From Candidatus Staskawiczbacteria bacterium (GTDB lineage Bacteria > Patescibacteriota > Minisyncoccia > Minisyncoccales > Staskawiczbacteraceae), in contig JAPLZC010000010.1 in NCBI GenBank assembly GCA_026395215.1, positions 7,371 through 71,370 of the forward strand: a stretch of DNA of 64,000 nt, in the 5' to 3' direction. Shown here one piece after another: positions 3,001-56,719 of this stretch. The position numbers and the translations under genes were made by a program. Positions within the stretch are counted from its first letter, which is position 1. Each line of letters starts with the position of its first letter. The notes beneath the pieces are model-generated. The model was not told where the DNA came from, made no database searches, and saw only the letters and a program-made list of their open reading frames with translations.

Positions 3001-4565
3001 AGATGACGGATAAAAAGAGCCGTTAGATGGTGAAGTAAGAGTGATTGTAGGGTCATTGCCATCTATAGCAAATGTTGCCGATGGTCCGGCTGAGACTGCG
3101 GTGTTGCCGGCGGTGTCTGAGGCGGTACCGGCTGCAATTGAAATTCCAATTGTACCATCACCAGTAATAGAAGAAATTGTAACTGTTCGAGTAGTTGTGC
3201 CCGAACCGGTACGGTTTTGTTGAGAGTGACGTTTACGTTTGCCAGAGTGACTGCGTCGGCTCCTGAATAAGTTATTGTGTAATTAATCGGACCGGTGTTA
3301 GTCAAAGTAGCTGAAGGCGAACTAATGGAGACTGTGGGGGCAGTATTATCAACAATGAATGTTGCCGATGGTCCGGCTGAGACTGCGGTGTTGCCGGCGG
3401 TGTCTGAGGCGGTACCGGCTGCAATTGAAATTCCAATTGTACCATCACCAGTAATAGAAGAAATTGTAACTGTTCGAGTAGTTGTGCCCGAACCGGTATT
3501 AGCTGTTCCGGTTTTGTTGAGAGTGACGTTTACGTTTGCCAGAGTGACTGCGTCGGCTCCTGCGTAGGTTATGGTGTATGTTATAGGACCTGACTTTGTT
3601 AAGCTGGCTGAAGGAGAACCGATGGAGACTGTGGGGGCAATGTTATCTATAGCGTAAGCTAGACTGCCAGCATAATACATGGCTGCTGGGGTGGCAGCCA
3701 ATGTTGCCCATGTGTTGGCAGAGATAGAATAACGATAAAAATCAGTAGTATTATTTCCCCGTGATGCATAAATATAATCTCCGGAACCGGGATAAACTAA
3801 ACTGCCACCAAATTCAACGCTTGCTGGTGTGGCAGCCATTGTTGCCCATGTGTTAGCAGAGATAGAATAACGATAAAAAGTAGGGGTACTATTTCCTCTT
3901 AGTGCATAAATATAATCTCCGGAACCGGGATAAACTAAACTGCCACCAGGATTAATGGTTGCTGGGGTGGCTCTCATTGTTGTCCATGTGTTAGCAGAGA
4001 TAGAATAACGATAAAAAGTAGTGGTATTATTTCCTCTTAGTGCATAAATATAATCTCCGGAACCGGGATAAACTAAACTAGCACCATTATCAGTGGCTGC
4101 TGGGGCGTCCTGCATAAAATCCCATCTATTGGCAGAGATAGAATAACGATAAAAAGTACGGGTACTATTTCCCACAAATGCATAAACATAATCTCCAGAA
4201 ACCAAACTACCACTACCATACATATATTGTGAGACACCGGCCATTGGTGTCCAAGCGTTGGCAGAGATAGAATAACGATAAAAATCAGTGGTAGCATTTC
4301 CTCTTAGTGCATAAATATAATCTCCAGAACCGGGACCGGGGCCAATTATACCACCACCCCAAGAAATAAAATCAGGTGGAAAACTAGCCAGTGTTGACCA
4401 GGAGTTATTAACAATAGAATACTTGGCAAAAGTATTATTCCAGGTAGTCACAGCATAAATATTTGCTCCTGCTTTTACATCTTTTGGAAAAATAAAAAAT
4501 CCGCAAAACATAAAGAACAGCAGGGCTGAGAGAATTATGGATGATGATTTTTTATTATGAAACAT
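1..4565 (-). CDS. Giant secreted adhesin-like surface protein. The 3' end lies outside the window, and the reading frame is interrupted by a 10-nt indel at 3211/3212.
   Basis: Track ORF 3063..4565 has a signal-peptide-like N-terminus (MFHNKKSSSIILSALLFFMFCGFFIF) followed by six blades ending in FYRYSISANxW. I spot-translated the minus strand below 3211 in the shifted frame over roughly 3100-2280 and 680-1; no stop appears there and the frame runs to position 1. It reads a LamG/ConA-like domain (SAWVKVNS, GQWYHVVGKW, GKIYINGTEV, LDDVMVFNRALTAGDIAALY) and FN3 units (VTLAWTAPGSTGGSPITGYNIYRS, IVLNWTAGPTGGSPITSYKVYRS, IILTWT at the edge). Confidence 0.8.
3060..3640 (-). repeat. Two tandem ~291-bp (97-aa) Ig-like repeat units; the distal copy is 10 nt shorter.
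   Basis: The protein unit APTVSI(G/S)SPSA..YTITY.GADAVTLANVNVTLNKTGTANTGSGTTTRTVTISSITGDGTIGISIAAGTASDTAGNTAVSAGPSATF occurs twice. Long identical DNA stretches match, e.g. 3071-3200 against 3361-3490. Confidence 0.85.
3650..4330 (-). repeat. Tandem ~138-bp units encoding Kelch-like beta-propeller blades.
   Basis: The plus-strand 21-mer gagatagaataacgataaaaa recurs at 3721, 3859, 3997 and 4135 (spacing 138) and again at 4264. Confidence 0.85.
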
Positions 4566-5034: not shown

Positions 5035-5073
5035 TCAATTATTATACTCCTTTATTTTAATTAAAACAAAGCG

Positions 5074-5790
5074 TCAATTGTGGATAACCCTAATATCACT
5101 GACAGGGTAAAAAGTTTTTCTGTGAATTGGGCAAGCACCGTGCTTTTTTAGCATTTTAAAATGCAGAGCTGTGCCATAACCCTTATGTTTTTCAAAACCG
5201 TACTGCGGATATTTTTTGTCATACTTTAACATAATTCTATCCCGCGTTACCTTGGCAATTATGCTGGCCGCTGAAATAGAAATAACTTTCTGATCCCCTT
5301 TTATTATTGCGTGCTGAGGTGTCGCACAATAAACCTTAAAATTTCCGTCTAACAACAAATAATTAGGCGCTATACCTAAATCTTTAACAGCTTTTAACAT
5401 AGCCAACTTTGATGCTTCCAAAATATTTATTTTATCAATTACTTTTTCACTAACTATCCCAATTCCCCACTCAACGTCGGGATGCCGAGTTAAAACTTTA
5501 AACAAATGTTCGCGTTGCTTTTGGGACAACTGTTTAGAATCCTTTATGTTTAAACTCGAAATTCGAATATCGAAATTCGAAAGATGTTTTGAATTTTGTA
5601 TTTTGAAAATTCTGATTTGTTTCGGATTTCTGATTTCGTGCTTAGGATTTATAACAACGGCGGCTGCCACAACTGGGCCGGCCAAAGGCCCGCGTCCGGC
5701 TTCATCTAGCCCAACTACAACTTTAATCCCCTTCCGCCACAATAATTTTTCCTCCTCCAAATTCGGATACTTTTTAACCTGATACTTCAT
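5074..5790 (-). CDS. rnhB: Ribonuclease HII, carrying a ~25-aa low-complexity insertion.
   Basis: Contains the motifs GLDEAGRGPLAGPVVAAAV and DSKQLS and has a typical C-terminal half. Confidence 0.9.
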   Translation of the reverse strand: MKYQVKKYPNLEEEKLLWRKGIKVVVGLDEAGRGPLAGPVVAAAVVINPKHEIRNPKQIRIFKIQNSKHLSNFDIRISSLNIKDSKQLSQKQREHLFKVLTRHPDVEWGIGIVSEKVIDKINILEASKLAMLKAVKDLGIAPNYLLLDGNFKVYCATPQHAIIKGDQKVISISAASIIAKVTRDRIMLKYDKKYPQYGFEKHKGYGTALHFKMLKKHGACPIHRKTFYPVSDIRVIHN

Positions 5791-15160: not shown

Positions 15161-15263
15161 TGTTTTATTAGTTATTTAAATTATATAATATCAGTTTACA
15201 CCTATCAAAACCAAAGTACAACAGCTTCACAAAACAGCTAATTTATTGTATTATACGAATATT

Positions 15264-16532
15264 ATGAAATATCACATAATTGTATTTGGATGCCAAATGA
15301 ACATTGCGGACGCGGAGAGGGTTTCTGCTGTTTTAGAGTCTATGAAATATACGCAAACCGCGAACATAAACGAGGCTGACTTGGTTGCTGTGGTAATGTG
15401 TTCGGTGCGTAAATCGGCAGTAGACCGAGTTTTTGGCATTGTCGAAAAGTTCAAAGAAATAAAAAAGAAAAATCACGGCTTAAAAACTATTTTGACCGGT
15501 TGCGTAATTAAAAAAGATAAAAAAATATTTTTAAATTTATTTGATTATGTAATAGACATAAAAGATATTAAGAATATATCCAAATTGCTAGGCAATTGTG
15601 GATCCTCGAGGAAGTCGGGACCGCAAACAGATAATTACCTAGATATTACCCCAAAACATTCCTCTAAGTTTTCTGCTACTGTGCCAATTATGACCGGATG
15701 CAATAATTTTTGTTCTTACTGTGTTGTTCCCTACGCCCGTGAAAGAGAAATTTCCAGATCTTCTAGCAAAATAATTTCTGAAATAAAAAATCTCGTAAAA
15801 AATAATTACAGGGAAATTTGGCTACTCGGCCAAAACGTCAACAGCTATAAAGACGGCAAAACCAGCTTCCCTGCTCTACTTAAAATAATAAATAATATTC
15901 CCGGAAATTTCTGGATACGCTTTACATCTTCACACCCAAAAGACTTTAACAGCGATGTTATTGAAGCTATGGCAAAGTGTGAAAAAATTACTCCGTACTT
16001 AAACCTACCTATACAATCTGGCGATAACAAAATTTTAGAGTTAATGAACAGGCATTATACGGTGCAAGAATATAAAAATAAAATTAAAGAGTTAAGAAAA
16101 AAAATACCTGATATTTGCCTGTCTACAGACATAATTGTCGGTTTTCCAGGGGAAACGAAAAAACAATTTAATAACACTGTCCAGCTATTTAAAGACACAA
16201 AGTATGACATGGCTTATATAAACAAATACTCTCCACGATTTGGAACTGCTGCGGCAAAATTGAAAGATGATGTTACATGGGACGAGAAAAAGAGAAGAGA
16301 AAAAGTTCTCAACGAAACTCTAAAACAAACCGCATTAGAAAATAACAAAAAATATATTGGGAAAATAGTTGAAGTTTTAATTGATTCTAAAAAAGATGGC
16401 AGGCTTTTTGGAAAAACAAAAGAATACAAGACTATAGAAATAAACAACGATAAATACCAAATTGGAGAAATAATAAAAGCAAAAATAACAGAAGCTTTAG
16501 CGTGGTCGCTAAGGGGCAAAATAATCAAATGA
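15264..16532 (+). CDS. miaB: tRNA-i6A37 methylthiotransferase (MiaB family).
   Basis: UPF0004 N-terminus (IIVFGCQMN), radical-SAM CNNFCSYCVVP motif, and a TRAM-like C-terminus. The start is re-set from TTG 15246 to ATG 15264. Confidence 0.85.
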   Translation: MKYHIIVFGCQMNIADAERVSAVLESMKYTQTANINEADLVAVVMCSVRKSAVDRVFGIVEKFKEIKKKNHGLKTILTGCVIKKDKKIFLNLFDYVIDIKDIKNISKLLGNCGSSRKSGPQTDNYLDITPKHSSKFSATVPIMTGCNNFCSYCVVPYAREREISRSSSKIISEIKNLVKNNYREIWLLGQNVNSYKDGKTSFPALLKIINNIPGNFWIRFTSSHPKDFNSDVIEAMAKCEKITPYLNLPIQSGDNKILELMNRHYTVQEYKNKIKELRKKIPDICLSTDIIVGFPGETKKQFNNTVQLFKDTKYDMAYINKYSPRFGTAAAKLKDDVTWDEKKRREKVLNETLKQTALENNKKYIGKIVEVLIDSKKDGRLFGKTKEYKTIEINNDKYQIGEIIKAKITEALAWSLRGKIIK

Positions 16533-46680: not shown

Positions 46681-46685
46681 ATTTG

Positions 46686-46756
46686 TTGGGTCGCTCCGAA
46701 TTGCACGGAGGCCTGCAGCTTATGAGACTGCCGAGGTACTACTCCTCCACGACCCA
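46686..46756 (-). tRNA. Second CAU-anticodon tRNA-like gene with atypical D- and T-loops.
   Basis: Acceptor TGGGTCG/CGACCCA, D arm GAGG-AGTAGTA-CCTC, anticodon arm GCAGT-CTCATAA-GCTGC, T arm CTCCG-TGCAATT-CGGAG. Confidence 0.55.
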
Positions 46757-48919: not shown

Positions 48920-50719
48920 TTACGCACGAAATACTTCTAAGAAGGCTTTTGTGGGCACATTTACTGTACCTTTGGCCTTCATTAACTTTTTACCTTTTTT
49001 CTGTTTGTCTCTTAGCTTGTTCTTTCTGGTTATATCTCCCCCATACAAATACCCTGCAACATCTTTCATGTAGGCCTTAATTGTTTCTCTTGCAATAACC
49101 TTTCCACCAATAACCGCCTGTAAAGCAACTGTAAATTGTTCGGGTGGCAAAACGTCTTTCAATTTTTCAACCATTTTCTTTCCCTCAAAATATGCTTCAT
49201 CTTCAGAAACAATTCTTGAAAATGCTTCCTCTTTTTTTCCTGCTACCCAAATTTCCATTTTAACCAATTTACCCGGCCTGTATCCTAAAAGGTTATAACT
49301 CATTGACGCATATCCCTGGCTGGCAGTTTTTATTTTGTCGTAAAGATTTGCAATAATTCCACGCAATGGAGTCTCAAAAATTATAATTACTCTTTCCGGG
49401 CTAAGATAAGTTGTTTCTATATAATTACCTTTTAAAGTCTTTAAAAGATCCATTAACTTTCCTATTTGATTTGCCGGAGCAATAACTTCTAAAGAAACCC
49501 ATGGCTCTTCTGTATTTTTTATTTTAGATTGATCTGGCCAGTCAGCTGCCGAATAAATAATAATTTCTTTTCCTTTTTGGTCAAAAACTTTATAGACAAC
49601 CGATGGCGTAGAAATAACCAAATTCAAACCAAACTCTCTTGCCAGTCTTTCAGAAATAATTTCTATGTGCAAAGTTCCCAAAAATCCACAGTTAAATCCC
49701 CTACCCAAGGCTTCTTTCATTTCTTGTTCAAAAACAAGCGCAGGATCTGATAGTTTTAATTTTGAAAGCGCCACTTTTAATAAATCAAAATCTTCCGGAT
49801 TTTCAGGATATAAACTGGCAAAAACCATTGGTTTTGGTTTTTGATACCCCGGTAATGCCTCAACACTGCCTCTTGTATTTATATTTTGTAATTTAATAAT
49901 TGTGTCTCCGGCAGTAACCTTTCCCGGTTCTTTAATTCCGGTTGCAATATATCCAATATCCCCCGCTTTAATTTTTGGTTGAGCTGAAAATGTTGGATTT
50001 AAATATCCAAGCTCTTTTACTTCGGCCAACGCGCTAGTTGCCATTAACTCAATTTTTTCTCCATTAGAAATTTCTCCGTCAACAACGCGTACAAACGCAA
50101 TAACTCCTTTAAATGAATCATATTCAGAATCAAAAATAAGTGCCCTAAAATCATTTATAGTGCTTTCTTTTGGAGGCGGTACTTGTTCAATGACTGCTTT
50201 CAAAACCAAATCAACGTTTGTGCCGTCTTTTGCAGAAATTTTTATTATGTCTTCGGGAAAGACCTGCAAAAGATTTGCCAACTCTTCAACTGTTTCATCT
50301 ACTCTTGCTATTGGGCTGTCTATTTTATTTATAACAGGAATAATTTTTAAGTTTTGCTTTTTGGCCAATTCCAGGTTAGCCAATGTTTGTGCTTGAATTC
50401 CCTGCGTGGCATCAACCAATAAAATTGCTCCTTCCACCGCCTCCATGGATCTTGAAACCTCGTAAGAAAAATCTACGTGGCCGGGAGTATCAACCAAGTT
50501 CAAAATATATTCTTTGCCGCCAAAACTATAATTCATTCTAATGGCTTTGAGTTTTATAGTAATCCCCTTTTCCCTTTCCAAATCCATAGAATCTAAAAAC
50601 TGAGGCATCATTTTTTTGGGATCAATTGTCCCCGTCAACTCCAAAAGCCTATCGGCCAGCGTAGACTTTCCATGGTCAATATGAGCAATAATACTAAAGT
50701 TTCTTATATTTTCTTGCAT
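48920..50719 (-). CDS. lepA: Translation elongation factor 4.
   Basis: Motif NFSIIAHIDHGKSTLADRLL; 599 aa with a typical LepA C-terminus. Confidence 0.95.
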   Translation of the reverse strand: MQENIRNFSIIAHIDHGKSTLADRLLELTGTIDPKKMMPQFLDSMDLEREKGITIKLKAIRMNYSFGGKEYILNLVDTPGHVDFSYEVSRSMEAVEGAILLVDATQGIQAQTLANLELAKKQNLKIIPVINKIDSPIARVDETVEELANLLQVFPEDIIKISAKDGTNVDLVLKAVIEQVPPPKESTINDFRALIFDSEYDSFKGVIAFVRVVDGEISNGEKIELMATSALAEVKELGYLNPTFSAQPKIKAGDIGYIATGIKEPGKVTAGDTIIKLQNINTRGSVEALPGYQKPKPMVFASLYPENPEDFDLLKVALSKLKLSDPALVFEQEMKEALGRGFNCGFLGTLHIEIISERLAREFGLNLVISTPSVVYKVFDQKGKEIIIYSAADWPDQSKIKNTEEPWVSLEVIAPANQIGKLMDLLKTLKGNYIETTYLSPERVIIIFETPLRGIIANLYDKIKTASQGYASMSYNLLGYRPGKLVKMEIWVAGKKEEAFSRIVSEDEAYFEGKKMVEKLKDVLPPEQFTVALQAVIGGKVIARETIKAYMKDVAGYLYGGDITRKNKLRDKQKKGKKLMKAKGTVNVPTKAFLEVFRA

Positions 50720-50720
50720 A

Positions 50721-52367
50721 TTATTTTGTGGGATATAAAAACTTTTTTAAGAGTGAATCAACAAGAATTTTACTTTCGGGAGATTTTAATAAATGTGTGA
50801 CAATAGCATAAGTGGCAACACCAACTGAACCGGAAACAATTAACTGGAAAAATATTCCCCAAAAAGCTTGCAAACTAACTATTGAACCCAATAATTGTCG
50901 CACAATAAAAGTAACTACAACCATAACCAAAGAGGCAATTAATATCTTATACAGGGAATCATAAATTTCCTTTGAATTTAAATTTGAAAATTTCCTAGAA
51001 AACATATACATAAGCAAGGCACACTCTAAAACAGCTGTAATTGTGTAGGCCAAAGCAAGAGCAATCACGCCAATGTTGGCAACTCCACCTAATCTTAACA
51101 CACTTTGCAAGAAAAAATTAAACTCTGGAAAAAACCTGACAAGCCATACCAGCAATAAGCTAAGTATAATATTAAAAGCCACAGTTAACCCGCTAATTAT
51201 GGCCGGAATTTTTGTATTATGAGCGGCATAAAACGTTTTTGATAAAAATAAAATAAGAGCTTGAGCAACAAGGTTTAAAGCCAAAATGCCAAGACAAGCC
51301 GTTGTTAGTTTTGTATCCGCCCAGTCAAACCTTCCTGCCCCTAAAACCACCCTGACTATCTGAGCTCTCAAAATCAACAAGAGTAAGCTTAACGGAATAA
51401 CCAAAAATATTATCTGTCTAAATATGCCGGAAAATTTTCTTAAAAATTCGTCTTTTTCCTCATTCAAAAAGGCCATAGACATAGAAGGAAAAGAAGCAGT
51501 TGAAACAGAGACTGCCACCGCGTTAACCAAAATTGACGACAAATTATTTGCTAAGTTAAAAACTGCAATTGAACCTGACATTAAGGTAGAAGCAATGGCG
51601 GTTGTAGCAATTGTGTTTAACTGCCCAGCCCCCAAACCCAAAGATCTTGGCACCATCATCTTCATTGTTTTTACCACTCCTTCATCTTTATAGTCAAAAC
51701 TTGCCTTATATTTAAATCCGGAAAAAAAGAAGGCCGGCAATTGGACCGCTAAATGTAAAACTCCTCCAAGCACTACTCCCCAGGCCAGCCCCGAAAGACC
51801 AAACTTTGGCACAAAAAATATAATACCAATTATTATTCCTAGGTTGTATAACAACGGCGCCATGGCAGTCACTAAAAATCTATGGAACACCTGCAAAATT
51901 CCGCTTATCATATTTGAGGCGCCCAAAATAATTGGACTCAAAAACATAATACGCATTAACATAACAGCCAACTCTTTTTTCTCACCAGAAAATCCCGGAG
52001 CTATTAAAGAAATAATTGCCGGAGTAAAAACCAATAATATCAAACAGACAACAATCAGGCATCCCAAAAATACATTAAAAAGTAAAGAAGCATATCTCCA
52101 AGCTTCGTCTTTGTTCTTAACTAAATATGAACTAAAAATTGGTATTACCGCTGCTGATATTGCTCCAAAAATTAAAATTAAAGCAATAAAATCTGGAACA
52201 GTAAACGCTGTATAATAAACATCCAACTCACCTCCGGCTCCAAAAGTCCCTGCCAAAAGACGGTCTCTTATTAAACCTAAAAAAGCGCTTCCTAAATATG
52301 AAATCGCCAAAATTAATGAAGCAGAGCTTATAGACTTTGTCTGAGAATTAAAGAATTTTTGTATCAT
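50721..52367 (-). CDS. murJ: Lipid II flippase MurJ/MviN.
   Basis: Polytopic, with the N-terminal pattern SASLILAISYLGSAFLGLIRDRLLAGTFGAG. The first ATG is at 52367; the track TTG is at 52406. Confidence 0.8.
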   Translation of the reverse strand: MIQKFFNSQTKSISSASLILAISYLGSAFLGLIRDRLLAGTFGAGGELDVYYTAFTVPDFIALILIFGAISAAVIPIFSSYLVKNKDEAWRYASLLFNVFLGCLIVVCLILLVFTPAIISLIAPGFSGEKKELAVMLMRIMFLSPIILGASNMISGILQVFHRFLVTAMAPLLYNLGIIIGIIFFVPKFGLSGLAWGVVLGGVLHLAVQLPAFFFSGFKYKASFDYKDEGVVKTMKMMVPRSLGLGAGQLNTIATTAIASTLMSGSIAVFNLANNLSSILVNAVAVSVSTASFPSMSMAFLNEEKDEFLRKFSGIFRQIIFLVIPLSLLLLILRAQIVRVVLGAGRFDWADTKLTTACLGILALNLVAQALILFLSKTFYAAHNTKIPAIISGLTVAFNIILSLLLVWLVRFFPEFNFFLQSVLRLGGVANIGVIALALAYTITAVLECALLMYMFSRKFSNLNSKEIYDSLYKILIASLVMVVVTFIVRQLLGSIVSLQAFWGIFFQLIVSGSVGVATYAIVTHLLKSPESKILVDSLLKKFLYPTK

Positions 52368-52426
52368 TGAATATTTAATCTTAACAAAAAAATCGTCCTT
52401 CAACAAGTTCAGGACGATTTCTTAGT

Positions 52427-52787
52427 TGTCTTAGCAAGACTGTAAGCCGAATTCTGTATTATGTGATTATCTATCTGCCCATTCGATTACTCTCAGGGTC
52501 GAGCGAACTACTTTTAACCTTTTTCGATGATGAAACAACGAAAATAGGCTTTGTTCTTGCACCCAATAAGGATTTAGCCGTTTCATTCTTGCATTTCTGC
52601 AAAACTTATCCTTGCGGATACCTCTGCCTTTCGGCTTTGGCGTTACTGTTCGCACCTCTGTCTTACGACTGATGGCTGTTAGCCACTATACTTTTAGAGC
52701 CGCTTTCGCGACAATTGGTGTTCGGACTTTCCTCCCCGTCACAATGCCGAAGCTTTGGTCGGGGCAATCACTCATCTTGCTAAGACA
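52427..52787 (-). ncRNA. rnpB: RNase P RNA (bacterial type).
   Basis: The minus strand contains GGGGAGGAAAGTCCGAACACC (P4 5' strand) and ACAGAATTCGGCTTACAG. The P1 stem TGTCTTAGCAAG / CTTGCTAAGACA closes the ends. Confidence 0.9.
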
Positions 52788-52825: not shown

Positions 52826-52859
52826 ATAAAAACCCAGCCAATTTCCAATTGACTGGGGG
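52826..52859 (-). terminator. Terminator after the small peptide gene.
   Basis: The minus strand reads CCCAGTCAATTggaAATTGGCTGGGttttta. Confidence 0.75.
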
Positions 52860-52913
52860 TTACATTGTTAGACCTTACGGTCCTTAATAGTTAGAGTGAC
52901 AACCCACAGGGGG

Positions 52914-53075
52914 TTAATCATCACCGCCGTTGCCGTCGCCGTCACCGTCACCACTGGATGCACTGCAACCTTCGGAACTGCTGGTTCCGTCAGTGCGGGC
53001 GTTCTTCATTGAACGCTGGTTATTCCAGTGGGCGTAGCCCGCCTTGATGCGGGCAAGTTTAGCATTGGTTTTCAC
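52914..53075 (-). CDS. 53-aa peptide MKTNAKLARIKAGYAHWNNQRSMKNARTDGTSSSEGCSASSGDGDGDGNGGDD (candidate rSAM substrate).
   Basis: Strong RBS GAAAGGAGG, then 5 nt, then GTG at 53075. It lies immediately downstream of the rSAM gene and has its own terminator. Hand counts give about 60% G+C. Confidence 0.6.
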   Translation of the reverse strand: MKTNAKLARIKAGYAHWNNQRSMKNARTDGTSSSEGCSASSGDGDGDGNGGDD

Positions 53076-53113
53076 TTTTACCTCCTTTCTTCCCGTTGAG
53101 CAATGGAAATCCA

Positions 53114-54196
53114 TTACTTAGAGAATCTCCAACACTGAGGATCTGGTGCGTAAAAATTCCCGCCAGAAGCTCCAAAAGCTACAGCAGGACATCCGCGACA
53201 ATAACACATGAGAGGACACCTCGAACAAATTTCGTGCCTTTTGATATCACGATAGAAGTCGAGTTCCTTGGAAGTGAAGACTTCCATTACGCTCTGCTCG
53301 GGCATTTTGCCTATTTTACTATTGAATCTTCTACAAGCAAAGACAGTGCCGTCAGCCAATACAGCCAAGTCTCTTGCGCCAATATGGCAACCCGAGATAA
53401 TTTGGCCTTCAGGATTTGATTCCAGACTGAACTTGCCCTGCTCATACAAAAGAAGCTTCCACAAATGATCCTTCAAAGTAAAGTTTGTCCTTGAACCCTT
53501 TGCTTTCAGTTCAGCAACAACTCCTTGAACCTCTATTAAAAAACTCCTATATTCATGGGGAGTGAATGCCGCCTCTTCCCGAGAAATCCTAGTATCAATC
53601 ACAGGATTTGTAGACAAGCGGGCAAAGGCAAAGGTTTTAACACCCAAATTACTTACCAGCTTCATCACATCAAATAAGTCATTGTGGTTTTTCTTGCTGA
53701 GAGTAAACATAACTACCGCTCTCATTTTATATTCAACAAGAAGTTTGATTGCCTTAACCGTGGCGGAAAAACTTCCCTGTTTGCGCAGGTGATCGTGCAT
53801 TTTCTCCATTCCGTCAAGGCTTACCTGGTAATTGACTACTCCCAGTTCCTTCATGCGAGAAATATTCCCAGCAGAAAGATGAAAAGGATTTCCTAAAATA
53901 TTCAAGCTGATTCCCTGTAGCGACGCATACTGCAGTATCTCAAAAAAATCGGGCCGCAGTAAAGGATCACCACCGGTGAAATTAATCCTAGGACGCGCTT
54001 CCGCAGCCTCACAAAATTCAAGAAATGAATCAATTATGGACTTACAGTCCGCGAGTGAGAGCTCTTTTTCAAGCTCACGCTTATAGACCTGCGGATCATT
54101 GACCATATAACAGTGTGCACATGACTGGTCGCAAAGACCTGTGATATGCCACTGGATAACAAAAACCGGCCGATTAGGATCGTACTTCTTACTCAT
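53114..54196 (-). CDS. Radical SAM enzyme with a C-terminal SPASM-type Cys cluster (peptide-maturase-like).
   Basis: The CDQSCAHC (CxxxCxxC) motif lies near the N-terminus. The C-terminus reads CSRCPLMCYCRGCPAVA...DPQCW. Confidence 0.8.
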   Translation of the reverse strand: MSKKYDPNRPVFVIQWHITGLCDQSCAHCYMVNDPQVYKRELEKELSLADCKSIIDSFLEFCEAAEARPRINFTGGDPLLRPDFFEILQYASLQGISLNILGNPFHLSAGNISRMKELGVVNYQVSLDGMEKMHDHLRKQGSFSATVKAIKLLVEYKMRAVVMFTLSKKNHNDLFDVMKLVSNLGVKTFAFARLSTNPVIDTRISREEAAFTPHEYRSFLIEVQGVVAELKAKGSRTNFTLKDHLWKLLLYEQGKFSLESNPEGQIISGCHIGARDLAVLADGTVFACRRFNSKIGKMPEQSVMEVFTSKELDFYRDIKRHEICSRCPLMCYCRGCPAVAFGASGGNFYAPDPQCWRFSK

Positions 54197-54232
54197 GTAG
54201 CACCAACTTTCTTTTAAAAGAGCTTACTATTT

Positions 54233-54260
54233 ATACTAATGAAATTGGCAACATTGTCAA
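54233..54260 (-). promoter_or_regulatory. Promoter of the rSAM-peptide operon.
   Basis: The minus strand reads TTGACA-16 nt-TAGTAT(AAAT). Confidence 0.55.
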
Positions 54261-54296: not shown

Positions 54297-54321
54297 TAAA
54301 AAAGGCCCCAAATGGGGCCCA
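54297..54321 (-). terminator. Terminator after metK.
   Basis: The minus strand reads GGCCCCAtttGGGGCCtttttt. Confidence 0.8.
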
Positions 54322-54327
54322 TTTTTA

Positions 54328-55383
54328 TTAAATTTTTATAATTTGTTCCCAGGGAAGATCTGCTTTGCCAAAATGGCCGTAGCTGGCGGTTATTTGGTAA
54401 ATTGGCTGACGAAGATTTAAAGTTTTTATAATAGAATTTGGTTTAAAATCAAACTTCTCTCTTATAAGTGCGCTTAAGTCTTTACCATTTTCATCTATTG
54501 CAGAAACCATTAAAGGCTCGGCTTTTCCTATGGCATATGCAACCGAAACCAAACATTGTTTGGCATATCCGTTAGCAACAATATTTTTTGCAGCAAACCT
54601 TGCCATATAGGCAGCCGATCTATCAACTTTGCTTGGGTCTTTACCGGAAAAACATCCTCCTCCATGATTAATCAGTCCACAATAAGTATCAACCATTATT
54701 TTTCTGCCGGTTAATCCTGTGTCTGCTTCAAATCCTCCCTGCACAAATTTACCTGTTGGGTTAACAAATATTTCCACATCAGAAATATCGCCCATAATAG
54801 GCTTTATTAATTTTTCTATTAAATTTTTTTTTATTTCTTCCTGAGAAATATTTTCGTCGTGCTGAGTGCTCACCAGAATATTTTCAACCTTTCCATTATT
54901 AATTGTTATCTGAGTTTTGCCGTCTGGCTTTAGCCATAAAATTTCTCCTTTTTCTCTTAATTCCTGCAAACCTTTTGCCAACGCATGAACTTTTACAACC
55001 GCCCACGGCATAAATTCTGGAGTTTCATCAGTTGCATATCCATACATAATTCCTTGGTCACCAGCTCCACCCGTATCTACTCCCATAGCTATGTCTGGGG
55101 ACTGTTGAACAATATTTATTATAAATTTTAACTCTTGTGTATAACCAACATCTTTATAAACCTTTCGGGCAACTTCCTCATAGTTTACTTTGGCTGTTGT
55201 TGTAACCTCACCCCCAATTACCACCAACCCATGTCCTCCAAATGACTCCACTGCCACTCTTGAGTTTGGGTCTTGTGCCAAACAAGCATCTAAAATGGCG
55301 TCTGAAATTTGATCACAAACTTTGTCCGGATGCCCCGCTGTAACGCTTTCTACTGTGTATGTTTGTTGGTTTATTATGCTCAT
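54328..55383 (-). CDS. metK: S-adenosylmethionine synthetase.
   Basis: Motif ESVTAGHPDKVCDQISDAILDA. The start is re-set to ATG 55383 (MSIINQQTY). Confidence 0.9.
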   Translation of the reverse strand: MSIINQQTYTVESVTAGHPDKVCDQISDAILDACLAQDPNSRVAVESFGGHGLVVIGGEVTTTAKVNYEEVARKVYKDVGYTQELKFIINIVQQSPDIAMGVDTGGAGDQGIMYGYATDETPEFMPWAVVKVHALAKGLQELREKGEILWLKPDGKTQITINNGKVENILVSTQHDENISQEEIKKNLIEKLIKPIMGDISDVEIFVNPTGKFVQGGFEADTGLTGRKIMVDTYCGLINHGGGCFSGKDPSKVDRSAAYMARFAAKNIVANGYAKQCLVSVAYAIGKAEPLMVSAIDENGKDLSALIREKFDFKPNSIIKTLNLRQPIYQITASYGHFGKADLPWEQIIKI

Positions 55384-55384
55384 A

Positions 55385-56560
55385 TTATTTTTTTCCGCCA
55401 GAGGCGGATCCGCCTTGGGCGGAAAAATATTTATTAAGGCATTTTTCAAATTTACCCAAATATTCATTTTTAACTCTAAACCCGGAGGCTAGTGCGTGAC
55501 CACCATAGGTCATTAAAAAATCATCGCATTCTTTCATTGCATCAACCGAGTTTGTGCCCTTAGGATTCCTTACTGAACCGCAAGACTCTTTGTCCATTTT
55601 CTTATAAATAAATGCGGGCTTGTTGTATTTATTACAAATTATTGACGCAACTGATCCCGCTAAAGTAAGTTTCCATGCGGGGTCACCCTCAAAAATAATT
55701 GAACTATCTTGTTTTTGTGAAATTCTCCTTTCAATTTCCTGCACAACATTTTTAACCTGAATTTGTTTATAATTATTTTTATCCAAAAGTTTTTGAGCCA
55801 TTTCCTTACACTTTTCTTTGTCAGAGCAGGTTAAAAGAACGTATGATTCATTTTCAAAATTAACAGATTCTGCCGCATTTAATCCGGAAATTATTTTTGG
55901 CAAAGCGCCCTCAAAAACTTCTCCATTTCCTAAAATATCTAAAAATGCTTTTATTGCCGGTCTAAATGTATTTTTTAAAGACCTCAAACCATGTTCAATT
56001 ATTTCCTGATTCTGTTCTATTTGTGGAACCATATCTGAAATTGTTCCCAATGCCGCCAATTCTAAGAAACTGTTTTTTAAACTACTAGAAACATTTTTCC
56101 CCAACAATTCCATGCAAAGATTAAATGTAACGCCAACATTAGCAAGGCCCTTAAAAGGATAAGGGTCATCTAATTGTTTCATATCAACAATTATAGAAGC
56201 CTTTGGAATTCCGGCAAGCGGTTCGTGATGGTCAACAATTATAACTTCAAAACCTAATTCGTTTGCAATATCAACCTCCTTAATATTTCCTATACCCAAA
56301 TCAAAAGTAATAAAAAGCGCCGGTGCTTTATTTTTTAACATTTCCAGCGCTTTTAAATTTATTCCATAACCATCGTTTTCCCTGTCAGGAAAAAATGCAC
56401 AATCAATGTGCCCTCCCAAACTTTTAATAGCTTCTTCTGCAATAACAACCGAAGAAATCCCATCTAAGTCAGAATCACCATACAATATAATACGCTCGCT
56501 GTTTTTTACAGCAAGCTTTATCCTCTCCGCCGCTTTTTCTATGTTCTTTATCTTTTGCAT
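55385..56560 (-). CDS. DHH/DHHA1-family phosphoesterase (RecJ/NrnA-like).
   Basis: Motifs YGDSDLDGISS, IIVDHHEP and GGHALASGF. The likely start is MQKIKNIEK (56560); the track start is 56611. Confidence 0.75.
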   Translation of the reverse strand: MQKIKNIEKAAERIKLAVKNSERIILYGDSDLDGISSVVIAEEAIKSLGGHIDCAFFPDRENDGYGINLKALEMLKNKAPALFITFDLGIGNIKEVDIANELGFEVIIVDHHEPLAGIPKASIIVDMKQLDDPYPFKGLANVGVTFNLCMELLGKNVSSSLKNSFLELAALGTISDMVPQIEQNQEIIEHGLRSLKNTFRPAIKAFLDILGNGEVFEGALPKIISGLNAAESVNFENESYVLLTCSDKEKCKEMAQKLLDKNNYKQIQVKNVVQEIERRISQKQDSSIIFEGDPAWKLTLAGSVASIICNKYNKPAFIYKKMDKESCGSVRNPKGTNSVDAMKECDDFLMTYGGHALASGFRVKNEYLGKFEKCLNKYFSAQGGSASGGKK

Positions 56561-56719
56561 ATATTTAATTAATGAACCTAGTGAAGAAATAGATTTTAAA
56601 GGCACCTTCAAAGGCAGTTTAGCTTGGTTTCGCGAAGCGAATAAACTGCCGAGAATGAGGCGCGTCGAGCCGCTGGGCGAGACGACGCCGGTGCCGACTA
56701 AAATTTATTTCTGAGCGTT

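Follow-up and report, generated by a model that had tools for sequence, protein, structure and literature searches.

A two-gene radical SAM/SPASM enzyme-peptide cassette of Candidatus Staskawiczbacteria from a sister group of the ACGX peptide-modification systems

The closest described counterpart of the locus reported here is the ACGX system, a pairing of a radical S-adenosylmethionine (SAM)/SPASM protein (TIGR04340) with an ACGX-repeat peptide (TIGR04341), which has been defined bioinformatically in NCBIfam/TIGRFAMs. Systems of this type are widespread and occur in gut Firmicutes, Bacteroidales, methanogens, bacteria of the candidate phyla radiation (CPR), and DPANN archaea. We analyzed a stretch of 64 kb from a Candidatus Staskawiczbacteria genome (here called the window), in which a radical SAM (rSAM)/SPASM enzyme gene is followed by a gene for a 53-amino-acid peptide with a single cysteine, Cys37. 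An earlier annotation of this DNA (the original prediction) had proposed that both genes form a cassette resembling those of peptides that are ribosomally synthesized and modified posttranslationally (RiPPs). This proposal was supported by our analysis: the two genes are inherited together, and the peptide has a leader-core organization. Among peptide-modification systems, it falls into a sister group of the database-defined ACGX type that is rare and unstudied and occurs in ultrasmall bacteria and archaea; the cassette does not represent a new kind of system.

Among experimentally characterized proteins, the nearest relative by NCBIfam score is SbtM, a radical SAM/SPASM maturase that forms the thio(seleno)oxazole of Geobacter-type "selenobiotic" peptides (Lewis et al. 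2021, as presented in PMC9204691 and PMC11002830). In the accounts given there, SbtM acts on a Gly-Cys/Sec motif, delivers a C-beta hydrogen to 5'-deoxyadenosine, and leaves its substrate lighter by 4 Da, with an auxiliary cluster proposed to bind the Cys. Its product is described as absorbing near 304 nm with a thiol that can still be alkylated, and the reaction has been proposed to proceed via a thioaldehyde like that of the anaerobic sulfatase maturase anSME (PMC9204691). A different outcome is described for the SPASM enzyme PapB, which makes Cys-Asp/Glu thioethers (PMC9413430). Peptidic 5-thiooxazoles are also known from MNIO (DUF692) systems, where they serve as copper-binding metallophores (bufferins, fontiphorin, and "captophorins"; PMC12668002).

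The window enzyme matched the Pfam models Radical_SAM (PF04055; 62.6 bits at a cutoff of 29.5, E = 6.6e-17) and SPASM (PF13186; 35.3 bits at a cutoff of 21.5, E = 1.4e-8) and is, by these matches, a member of the Radical SAM/SPASM superfamily. Its sequence matched a "radical SAM protein" of Candidatus Staskawiczbacteria (CPR/Patescibacteria) with 100% identity. As had been claimed from the start, it carries the motif CDQSCAHC (residues 22 to 29) and a C-terminal SPASM region with multiple cysteines; the CxxxCxxC cysteines (C22, C26, and C29) and all seven SPASM cysteines (C270, C288, C324, C327, C333, C336, and C355) were invariant in an alignment of 28 homologs. In characterized SPASM enzymes, a Cys triad together with seven SPASM cysteines is the pattern for a SAM-cleaving [4Fe-4S] cluster plus two auxiliary clusters, and from these residues we infer that the window enzyme binds three [4Fe-4S] clusters. 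An AlphaFold2 model (mean predicted local distance difference test score of 92.4) placed the beginning of the radical SAM barrel at residue 11; the enzyme therefore has no N-terminal leader-recognition domain of the RiPP recognition element (RRE) type.

Against the NCBIfam library, the top match was TIGR04340, the ACGX-system enzyme, over the full length (333.6 bits, E = 1e-99, under the curated cutoff of 400), followed by the SbtM model TIGR04082 (217 bits, E = 4e-64, model positions 196 to 515 of 516, which span its entire catalytic part, under the cutoff of 350). Lower scores were obtained for AhbD/NirJ (103 to 117 bits, with AhbD at 117), MftC (90), StsB (77), PapB (NF047865; 67.1 against a cutoff of 340), SkfB (66), and anSME (TIGR03942; 64.3 against a cutoff of 349). 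The nearest families (ACGX TIGR04340 and SbtM) are peptide modifying, and the enzyme did not fall into a clade with a known nonpeptide substrate. The thioether-forming enzymes QhpD and PapB, which the original prediction had offered as precedents, scored poorly: PapB reached only 67 bits, the nearest characterized relative being SbtM at 217; QhpD was not among the 25 best NCBIfam matches, the presence of a QhpD model in the library being unchecked. Six relatives of the enzyme (P0002, P0017, P0020, P0030, P0040, and P0055) gave the same ranking, with 332 to 370 bits on TIGR04340 and 203 to 235 on SbtM. A canonical ACGX enzyme (P0110) reached 482 and 192 bits, respectively, so that the window clade scored somewhat above the one canonical enzyme compared on the SbtM model. 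Judged by these scores, the clade is a CPR/DPANN sister group of the ACGX-system enzymes that lies below the equivalog cutoff. Among solved structures, sequence comparison matched only SkfB (59 bits) and BlsE, and a Foldseek search of the AlphaFold2 model against the PDB retrieved SkfB, anSME, ChlB, BlsE, PqqE, and SuiB at template modeling (TM) scores of 0.6 to 0.72.

The peptide gene begins with a GTG codon 38 nt past the rSAM stop codon and lies behind a strong ribosome-binding site (RBS), as originally described; the peptide sequence quoted at that time was exact. Sites of the GAAAGGAGG type preceded the peptide open reading frame (ORF) in most orthologous loci, and the site was identical in L169, the locus of the closest relative, whose enzyme differs at 9 of 102 residues of the C terminus. 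Because the RBS of the peptide gene is strong and that of the enzyme gene weak, the arrangement would be consistent with the peptide being translated more than the enzyme. The peptide consists of three parts: an N-terminal leader (KLxxIKAxYAHWN) and a C-terminal core, both conserved, and a variable spacer between them. Comparison with the L169 peptide, MKAKAKLARIKTGYAHWNKTRSSDSSCTSGSEGCSASSGDGDGDGNGGDD, revealed no nonsynonymous but 8 synonymous codon differences in the core (residues 34 to 53) and 1 nonsynonymous and 7 synonymous differences in the leader (residues 5 to 18), while residues 19 to 29 varied freely. On this substitution pattern, the peptide is a leader-spacer-core precursor under purifying selection. 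Together with the conserved adjacency to the enzyme gene described below, the pattern of codon changes establishes the small ORF as a genuine gene, not a chance ORF. The sequence features expected of a generic RiPP precursor were found: a small gene, purifying selection, a conserved leader and core, and a coinherited enzyme. A longer NCBI gene model of 66 amino acids (P0134), whose ATG shares bases with the rSAM stop codon (TAATG; 52914-53114), was rejected in favor of the GTG start, since the upstream frame is unconserved in L169 whereas the RBS is conserved.

Relatives of the peptide were rare. A profile search of 5.8 billion proteins recovered 39 small proteins, and HMMER, run exhaustively over 1.84 billion cluster representatives, recovered 25 at E ≤ 1e-3. 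The latter number is a lower bound, because precursors were miscalled even in loci where a homolog is present: in L168 (1792-1929) the gene caller chose the wrong frame, and in L163 (about 4110 to 4275) the precursor was missed in favor of an antisense ORF of 144 amino acids. Protein databases therefore probably undercount the small Gly/Asp/Cys-rich precursors of the family. The named hosts were CPR bacteria and DPANN archaea (Nanoarchaeota and Woesearchaeota). Neither NCBIfam nor Pfam yielded a match to the window peptide or to seven relatives, even at E ≤ 10. Hence, the earlier statement that the peptide matches no known precursor family held for curated models, but the peptide is no orphan: the cassette clade has its own small peptide family outside the curated libraries.

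In this family, the leader reads KLxxIKAxY-A-[HY]-W-N (Y-x-H/Y-W-N form) with an invariant Trp, and the only invariant columns of the peptide alignment were W17 and C37. The usual core (type A; 3 to 5 Cys) has the form ...C-x2-C-S-x-x-G-x-x-C-H-G-D-G-[ES]-C-G-G-D-G-[DE], directly followed by the stop codon; most peptides ended right after GGDG[DE] or GGDD, and a few carried short extensions. A minority of the peptides, including that of the window, are of type B (1 to 3 Cys, with 1 in the window) and have GDGDGDGNGGDD in place of the CH...C part. This tail was also present in P0139, P0136, and P0159 and partly in P0144. Since P0159 is paired with a divergent enzyme (L171), upstream of which it is encoded in a gene order opposite to that of the window, type B is an old and recurrent subtype and not a one-off decay product. 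The window core reads E-G-C-S around Cys37; in orthologs, the residue before the invariant Cys, which is Gly36 in the window, was G, E, Q, D, A, S, N, or H.

The association of the two genes was followed in 160 homologous loci fetched from genomes and metagenomes, supplemented by contigs that carry the closest enzymes and peptides. Wherever the enzyme was at least 55% identical to that of the window, a homologous peptide ORF of 45 to 57 amino acids was found 7 to 80 nt downstream (11/11 loci, 10 besides the window). In the wider family, a Cys-containing small ORF adjoined the enzyme gene in ∼87% of 154 loci. The co-occurrence on which the original prediction depended was thus observed in unrelated contexts, as the neighboring genes of the orthologous loci differed each time (isochorismatase and ornithine decarboxylase; diacylglycerol kinase and DpnI; TrmB and a cupredoxin; SmpB; FtsX), which indicates that only the enzyme and peptide genes travel together. 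No protease, transporter, or tailoring gene accompanied the cassette across the 11 loci, nor did accessory genes of cofactor pathways (peptidase or oxidase). We consider it very likely that enzyme and peptide are a true enzyme-substrate pair.

The cassette resembles ACGX systems in several respects. The enzymes have ∼340 to 360 amino acids, no RRE, and seven SPASM cysteines, with a full-length match to TIGR04340 in the window; a small Cys-containing peptide is encoded next to them; the leaders share an aromatic-Trp/Phe-Asn/Gly motif (...GWN, ...NAWN, ...YAHWN); and small and acidic residues abound in the cores. Under a broad definition, a homologous enzyme beside a peptide with a Trp/Phe leader and a Cys core, the cassette is an ACGX system. 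It differs, however, from the textbook form, in which ACGX-repeat peptides are encoded upstream of the enzyme (113 of the 159 fetched loci, e.g., ...SACGSACGAADPKE...). The window enzyme stays below the cutoff that the canonical P0110 exceeds, and its peptide is encoded downstream, has no A-C-G-x repeats and no match to TIGR04341 at E ≤ 1, and contains one Cys instead of 3 to 12. The hosts also differ, being CPR bacteria and DPANN archaea and not mainly gut Firmicutes, Bacteroidales, and methanogens; the cassette has no oxidoreductase gene, whereas a Zn-dependent alcohol dehydrogenase (ADH)-like or nitroreductase gene lies downstream in about half of the ACGX loci.

More distant homologs helped to delimit what is common to the superfamily. 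Enzymes 43 to 47% identical to that of the window came from CPR bacteria, Saccharibacteria, Micrarchaeota, and some Clostridia. Homologs at 40 to 50% identity had no peptide gene downstream but had one upstream instead: at 50% identity (L001) this was a type-A peptide, and at 40 to 47% the peptides combined a Trp-containing leader with Cys/Gly/Ser/Asn cores devoid of acidic residues, such as SCGAGSCNCGGGCNGSCSTSC. The constants of the superfamily were the enzyme, the Trp/Phe leader motif, and Cys, with no other core residue in common and no acceptor residue at a fixed distance from the Cys. The peptides of the sister clade thus display the common ground of the superfamily substrates, a Trp-containing leader and a Cys.

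We favor the reading that the locus is a minimal two-gene maturase-precursor cassette of RiPP type, which modifies Cys37 by an SbtM-like oxidation; taken as a whole, this statement falls a little short of an even chance. Its parts differ in strength. From the sequence, Cys37 is probably the modification target, while thiooxazole chemistry specifically, assigned by analogy to SbtM, is a tentative proposal. Because it has no RRE domain, the enzyme would recognize the leader directly and place the invariant Cys37 at its active site, possibly with the Cys ligating an auxiliary cluster. The 5'-deoxyadenosyl radical would take the C-beta hydrogen, and the Cys would then be oxidized. The likeliest product would be a 5-thiooxazole formed with the carbonyl of Gly36, as in SbtM, with a mass change of −4 Da and absorbance near 305 nm. 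This chemistry is favored by the lack of a fixed acceptor residue across the superfamily, which points to a reaction needing only Cys and its own backbone; that of SbtM requires just Cys and the preceding carbonyl and so fits cores that share nothing but Cys. The Gly-Cys/Sec motif of the SbtM substrates furthermore may have a counterpart in Gly36-Cys37. The mature product would be a small, very acidic peptide with a soft sulfur ligand beside an Asp/Gly-rich tail, plausibly metal binding or redox active. It may act inside the cell or leave it unprocessed, since no protease, transporter, or tailoring gene travels along.

A metal-binding or redox role is a guess by analogy, made reasonable by the copper binding of MNIO 5-thiooxazoles. 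These would be functional analogues only if the SbtM-type reaction applies, in which case both kinds of system would convert Cys of small ribosomal peptides to a thiol-bearing heterocycle. MNIOs are, in contrast, oxygen-dependent, nonheme iron enzymes, whereas radical SAM enzymes work anaerobically, and no MNIO or partner genes were present at the cassette; metal binding by the window peptide is a candidate property by analogy.

Several points weigh against this reading. The enzyme lies below the SbtM cutoff, and the ∼195-amino-acid N-terminal region of SbtM is absent from it. SPASM enzymes at such levels of similarity often differ in chemistry, and the fold comparison did not separate chemistries, as generic SPASM enzymes all matched at similar TM scores. 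The Gly-Cys match to SbtM may be coincidental, given that Ala precedes Cys in ACGX repeats and the position is variable in this clade. Asp at position +4 of ACGX-repeat Cys (60%) and at +3 of type-A Cys (54%) is reminiscent of the CX3D sites of PapB. A literature search retrieved no experimental study of either the ACGX system or the CPR/DPANN clade, and the function of the product is something we infer entirely. The window precursor also differs from those of SbtM in having no selenocysteine (its gene contains no in-frame UGA) or selenocysteine insertion sequence (SECIS) element, and the peptides are unrelated in sequence. Owing to the score cutoffs, the peptide model, the gene order, and the SbtM N-terminal region, the cassette fails formal membership of both the ACGX and the SbtM-type systems, yet it would work like one or the other.

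The main rival, and the foremost idea of the original prediction, is a thioether of the ranthipeptide/sactipeptide type. As in PapB, the sulfur of Cys37 would be joined to a carbon in some residue farther downstream, an example being the beta-carbon of Asp43 or of another Asp in the GDGDGDG tail. Such a link would suit a SPASM enzyme acting on an Asp-rich core and the frequent occurrence of Asp at +3 or +4 in family cores, and StsB, PapB, and SkfB were indeed among the sequence and fold matches. Their scores (77, 67, and 66 bits) were, however, about threefold lower than that of SbtM. The spacing is also not fixed: Asp follows Cys37 only at +6 (C-X5-D and not CX3D) but at +3 or +4 elsewhere, and one-third of the ACGX-repeat Cys have a Cys at +4 instead. 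In addition, superfamily enzymes at 40 to 47% identity are paired with cores entirely free of acidic residues. On balance, we regard a thioether as unlikely.

Other Cys-directed or C-terminal chemistry, either formation of formylglycine or a thioaldehyde as by anSME or derivation of a mycofactocin/PQQ-like cofactor from the C terminus, appears improbable. It draws on the anSME-like thioaldehyde proposed for SbtM itself, on the close fold match to anSME (TM score of ∼0.7 to PDB entries 4K37 and 4K39), whose C-beta hydrogen abstraction from Cys corresponds to the proposed first step of an SbtM-type reaction, and on the strict conservation of the C termini of the family peptides, which is reminiscent of the precursors of mycofactocin and PQQ. 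MftC was matched at 90 bits. The anSME model itself was nevertheless far from its cutoff, the partner of the enzyme is a dedicated small peptide and not a sulfatase, and the peptidase and oxidase genes of cofactor pathways were absent from the 11 loci. The resemblance of the CSASS segment to the C-x-A/P-x-R site of sulfatases, put forward in the original prediction, did not withstand comparison: the Arg at +4 is missing, and the Ala at +2 is not conserved (CSDIG, CSSAG, and CSSSS in orthologs).

Very little speaks for a decaying remnant, that is, for a cassette that is nonfunctional in this genome after losing three of the four usual cysteines and the His. Compared with the usual core, C..CS.SSGDGCHGDGxCGGDG[DE], the window peptide does lack the CH and the last Cys and has Ser at the first Cys position. 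The tail recurs, though, in four or more other sequences, including one with a divergent enzyme in opposite gene order (L171); the amino acids of the core were identical to those of L169 despite the 8 synonymous changes; the enzyme retained every column invariant in the 28-sequence alignment; and the RBS, the promoter-like site, and the terminator were intact. A degenerate pseudogene was accordingly rejected as an explanation of the peptide. That the small ORF is no gene and the enzyme acts on a nonpeptide substrate such as a tetrapyrrole, as suggested by the midranking AhbD/NirJ matches and the absence of the peptide from curated families, is effectively refuted by the conservation of the ORF in 11/11 loci with a strong RBS and purifying selection, by a family profile that could be built and recovered the 25 representatives, and by AhbD/NirJ scores of one-third of the ACGX score.

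With a single Cys, a 20-residue core, and no linked accessory genes in the window and ten related loci, the cassette offers an unusually clean substrate for studying the chemistry by mass spectrometry and the simplest entry point to that of a widespread family; it is a lead for enzymology and not a new principle. It is among the few candidate peptide-modification pathways kept by ultrasmall symbiotic bacteria and archaea, and a search of the literature on SPASM or ranthipeptide peptides in Patescibacteria/CPR yielded nothing relevant. Because the pathway is retained in such symbionts, its distribution hints at a physiological role (metal handling or redox) over a classical antibiotic one. A broader proposition, which we consider doubtful as a whole, is that a horizontally mobile two-gene pathway is common to the minimal genomes of CPR bacteria and DPANN archaea. 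Its RRE-less, leader-recognizing enzyme would turn the one invariant Cys of an acidic peptide of ∼50 residues into a heterocycle bearing a thiol or into some other new group derived from Cys. The product would belong to an undescribed class of intracellular peptides with a metal-binding or redox function, and type B, as the simplest natural substrate, would reveal the chemistry of the ACGX superfamily.

The features of the cassette are compiled in Table 1. On the minus strand, a promoter-like site is followed by the enzyme gene, the peptide gene, and a terminator-like hairpin.

Table 1. Positions of the cassette features and the adjoining RNase P RNA in the window
Feature	Position	Strand	Description
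Promoter-like site, TTGACA-16 nt-TAGTAT	54233-54260	minus	10 of 12 consensus matches; predicted from consensus match only
Radical SAM/SPASM enzyme gene	53114-54196	minus	360 amino acids; Pfam Radical_SAM and SPASM
Shine-Dalgarno sequence, GAAAGGAGG	53081-53089	minus	5-nt spacer to the GTG of the peptide gene
Precursor-peptide gene, MKTNAKLARIKAGYAHWNNQRSMKNARTDGTSSSEGCSASSGDGDGDGNGGDD	52914-53075	minus	53 amino acids; GTG start at 53075; stop codon included
Leader motif, AKLARIKAGYAHWN	53022-53063	minus	residues 5 to 18; Trp17 invariant in the family alignment
Core, SEGCSASSGDGDGDGNGGDD	52917-52976	minus	residues 34 to 53; type B, acidic Gly/Asp tail without CH..C
Cys37 codon	52965-52967	minus	sole Cys of the peptide; sole Cys column invariant across the family
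Intrinsic-terminator-like hairpin, CCCAGTCAATTGGAAATTGGCTGGG then TTTTTATTTG	52826-52857	minus	hairpin at 52857-52833 plus T-run
RNase P RNA	52427-52783	minus	flank of the cassette

That the two genes form a self-contained unit with its own TTGACA-16-TAGTAT promoter and terminator, as initially proposed, was supported by a recurrent promoter-like site, the strong RBS of the peptide gene, changing neighbors, and atypical G+C content at third codon positions (GC3). The −10 hexamer is separated from the rSAM ATG by 36 nt. Promoter-like sites as such were not in excess in the region (6 versus 4.3 ± 2.1 in shuffled sequences). Nine of ten orthologous cassettes had a TTGAC[AG] −35 element with a −10-like hexamer 34 to 78 nt upstream of the enzyme start, although their upstream genes are unrelated. 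The terminator-like hairpin starts 56 nt past the peptide stop codon; such sites were enriched over shuffled sequences (8 versus 1.8 ± 1.4), and a similar hairpin, CCCAGTCAACATGAAAAATTGACTGGGTTTTTATTT, was located 3' of the peptide gene in L169. On the flanks, metK (a SAM synthetase gene by Pfam) has its own hairpin at 54303-54320, the RNase P RNA has its own TTGACA-16-TAGTAT site upstream, and murJ and lepA lie beyond the latter.

The G+C content of the peptide gene was 56% (59.5% in the core) and that of the enzyme gene 43%, compared with 38.5% for the whole window; the earlier estimate of ∼60% for the peptide was therefore too high. GC3 was 0.43 in the enzyme gene and 0.59 in the peptide gene, versus 0.28 to 0.32 in lepA, murJ, metK, and a DHH-family gene (spans 48920-52406 and 54328-56611). 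Enzyme genes also exceeded their flanks in overall G+C content in several orthologous loci (e.g., 0.51 versus 0.38 in L163). The recurrent promoter-like site and the elevated G+C content of the enzyme genes fit horizontal mobility, and the contrast in the window appears compatible with transfer among CPR genomes. No second precursor copy or second SPASM enzyme was found within the window, where an hmmsearch of all six frames with the family profile matched only the 53-amino-acid ORF (E = 2.4e-15). The only other radical SAM gene of the window (15189-16529, plus strand; 447 amino acids with UPF0004, Radical_SAM, and TRAM domains) codes for a methylthiotransferase of MiaB/RimO type unrelated to the cassette.

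Genes next to related enzymes were of several kinds. A TehB-like SAM-dependent methyltransferase gene lay directly downstream of the enzyme in 12 of 29 relative loci with a "Cys-rich core" (among L003, L007, L009, L010, L012, L015, L017 to L020, L023, L024, L040, L041, and L055) and in none of the 11 type-A or type-B cassettes. If the TehB-like enzyme methylates the product, this would suggest that the radical SAM step leaves a free nucleophile, such as a thiol. Downstream of canonical ACGX enzymes (L011 to L160), there were 21 genes for Zn-dependent ADH/quinone-oxidoreductase-like proteins, 22 for nitroreductase-family proteins, and 5 for an unassigned protein of 280 amino acids with a GAGxSxxxG motif. 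Since redox enzyme genes so often follow canonical cassettes, they hint at participation of the mature ACGX product in redox chemistry. In L163, a gene with a cupredoxin/copper-binding domain (5049-5459) was located ∼1 kb downstream of the cassette, a single case that may be coincidence, mentioned in view of the proposed metal binding.

The RNase P RNA adjoins the cassette in L169 (912-1265, minus strand) as it does in the window, and murJ is next in both. Its orientation relative to the peptide gene is opposite in L169, which also contains two extra genes, one for a LiaF-TM-like small protein and an F420-ligase-like gene; the difference is a local rearrangement around a common cassette position. 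On the other flank, the longest metK ORF begins at 55467, so that it shares 83 nt (55385-55467) with the 3' end of the DHH/DHHA1 (RecJ/NrnA-like) gene upstream of it; the shared segment contains a G+C-rich palindromic stretch that resembles a terminator of the DHH gene. The true metK start is probably Met29 (55383), because the product translated from there has all three SAM-synthetase domains, starting at its residue 8. Farther away, a second tRNA-Met gene (CAT; 46685-46756, minus strand) was called by ARAGORN and unreported by the Rfam tRNA model at its gathering threshold; the window contains tRNA-Asp and two tRNA-Met(CAT) genes inside 800 nt.

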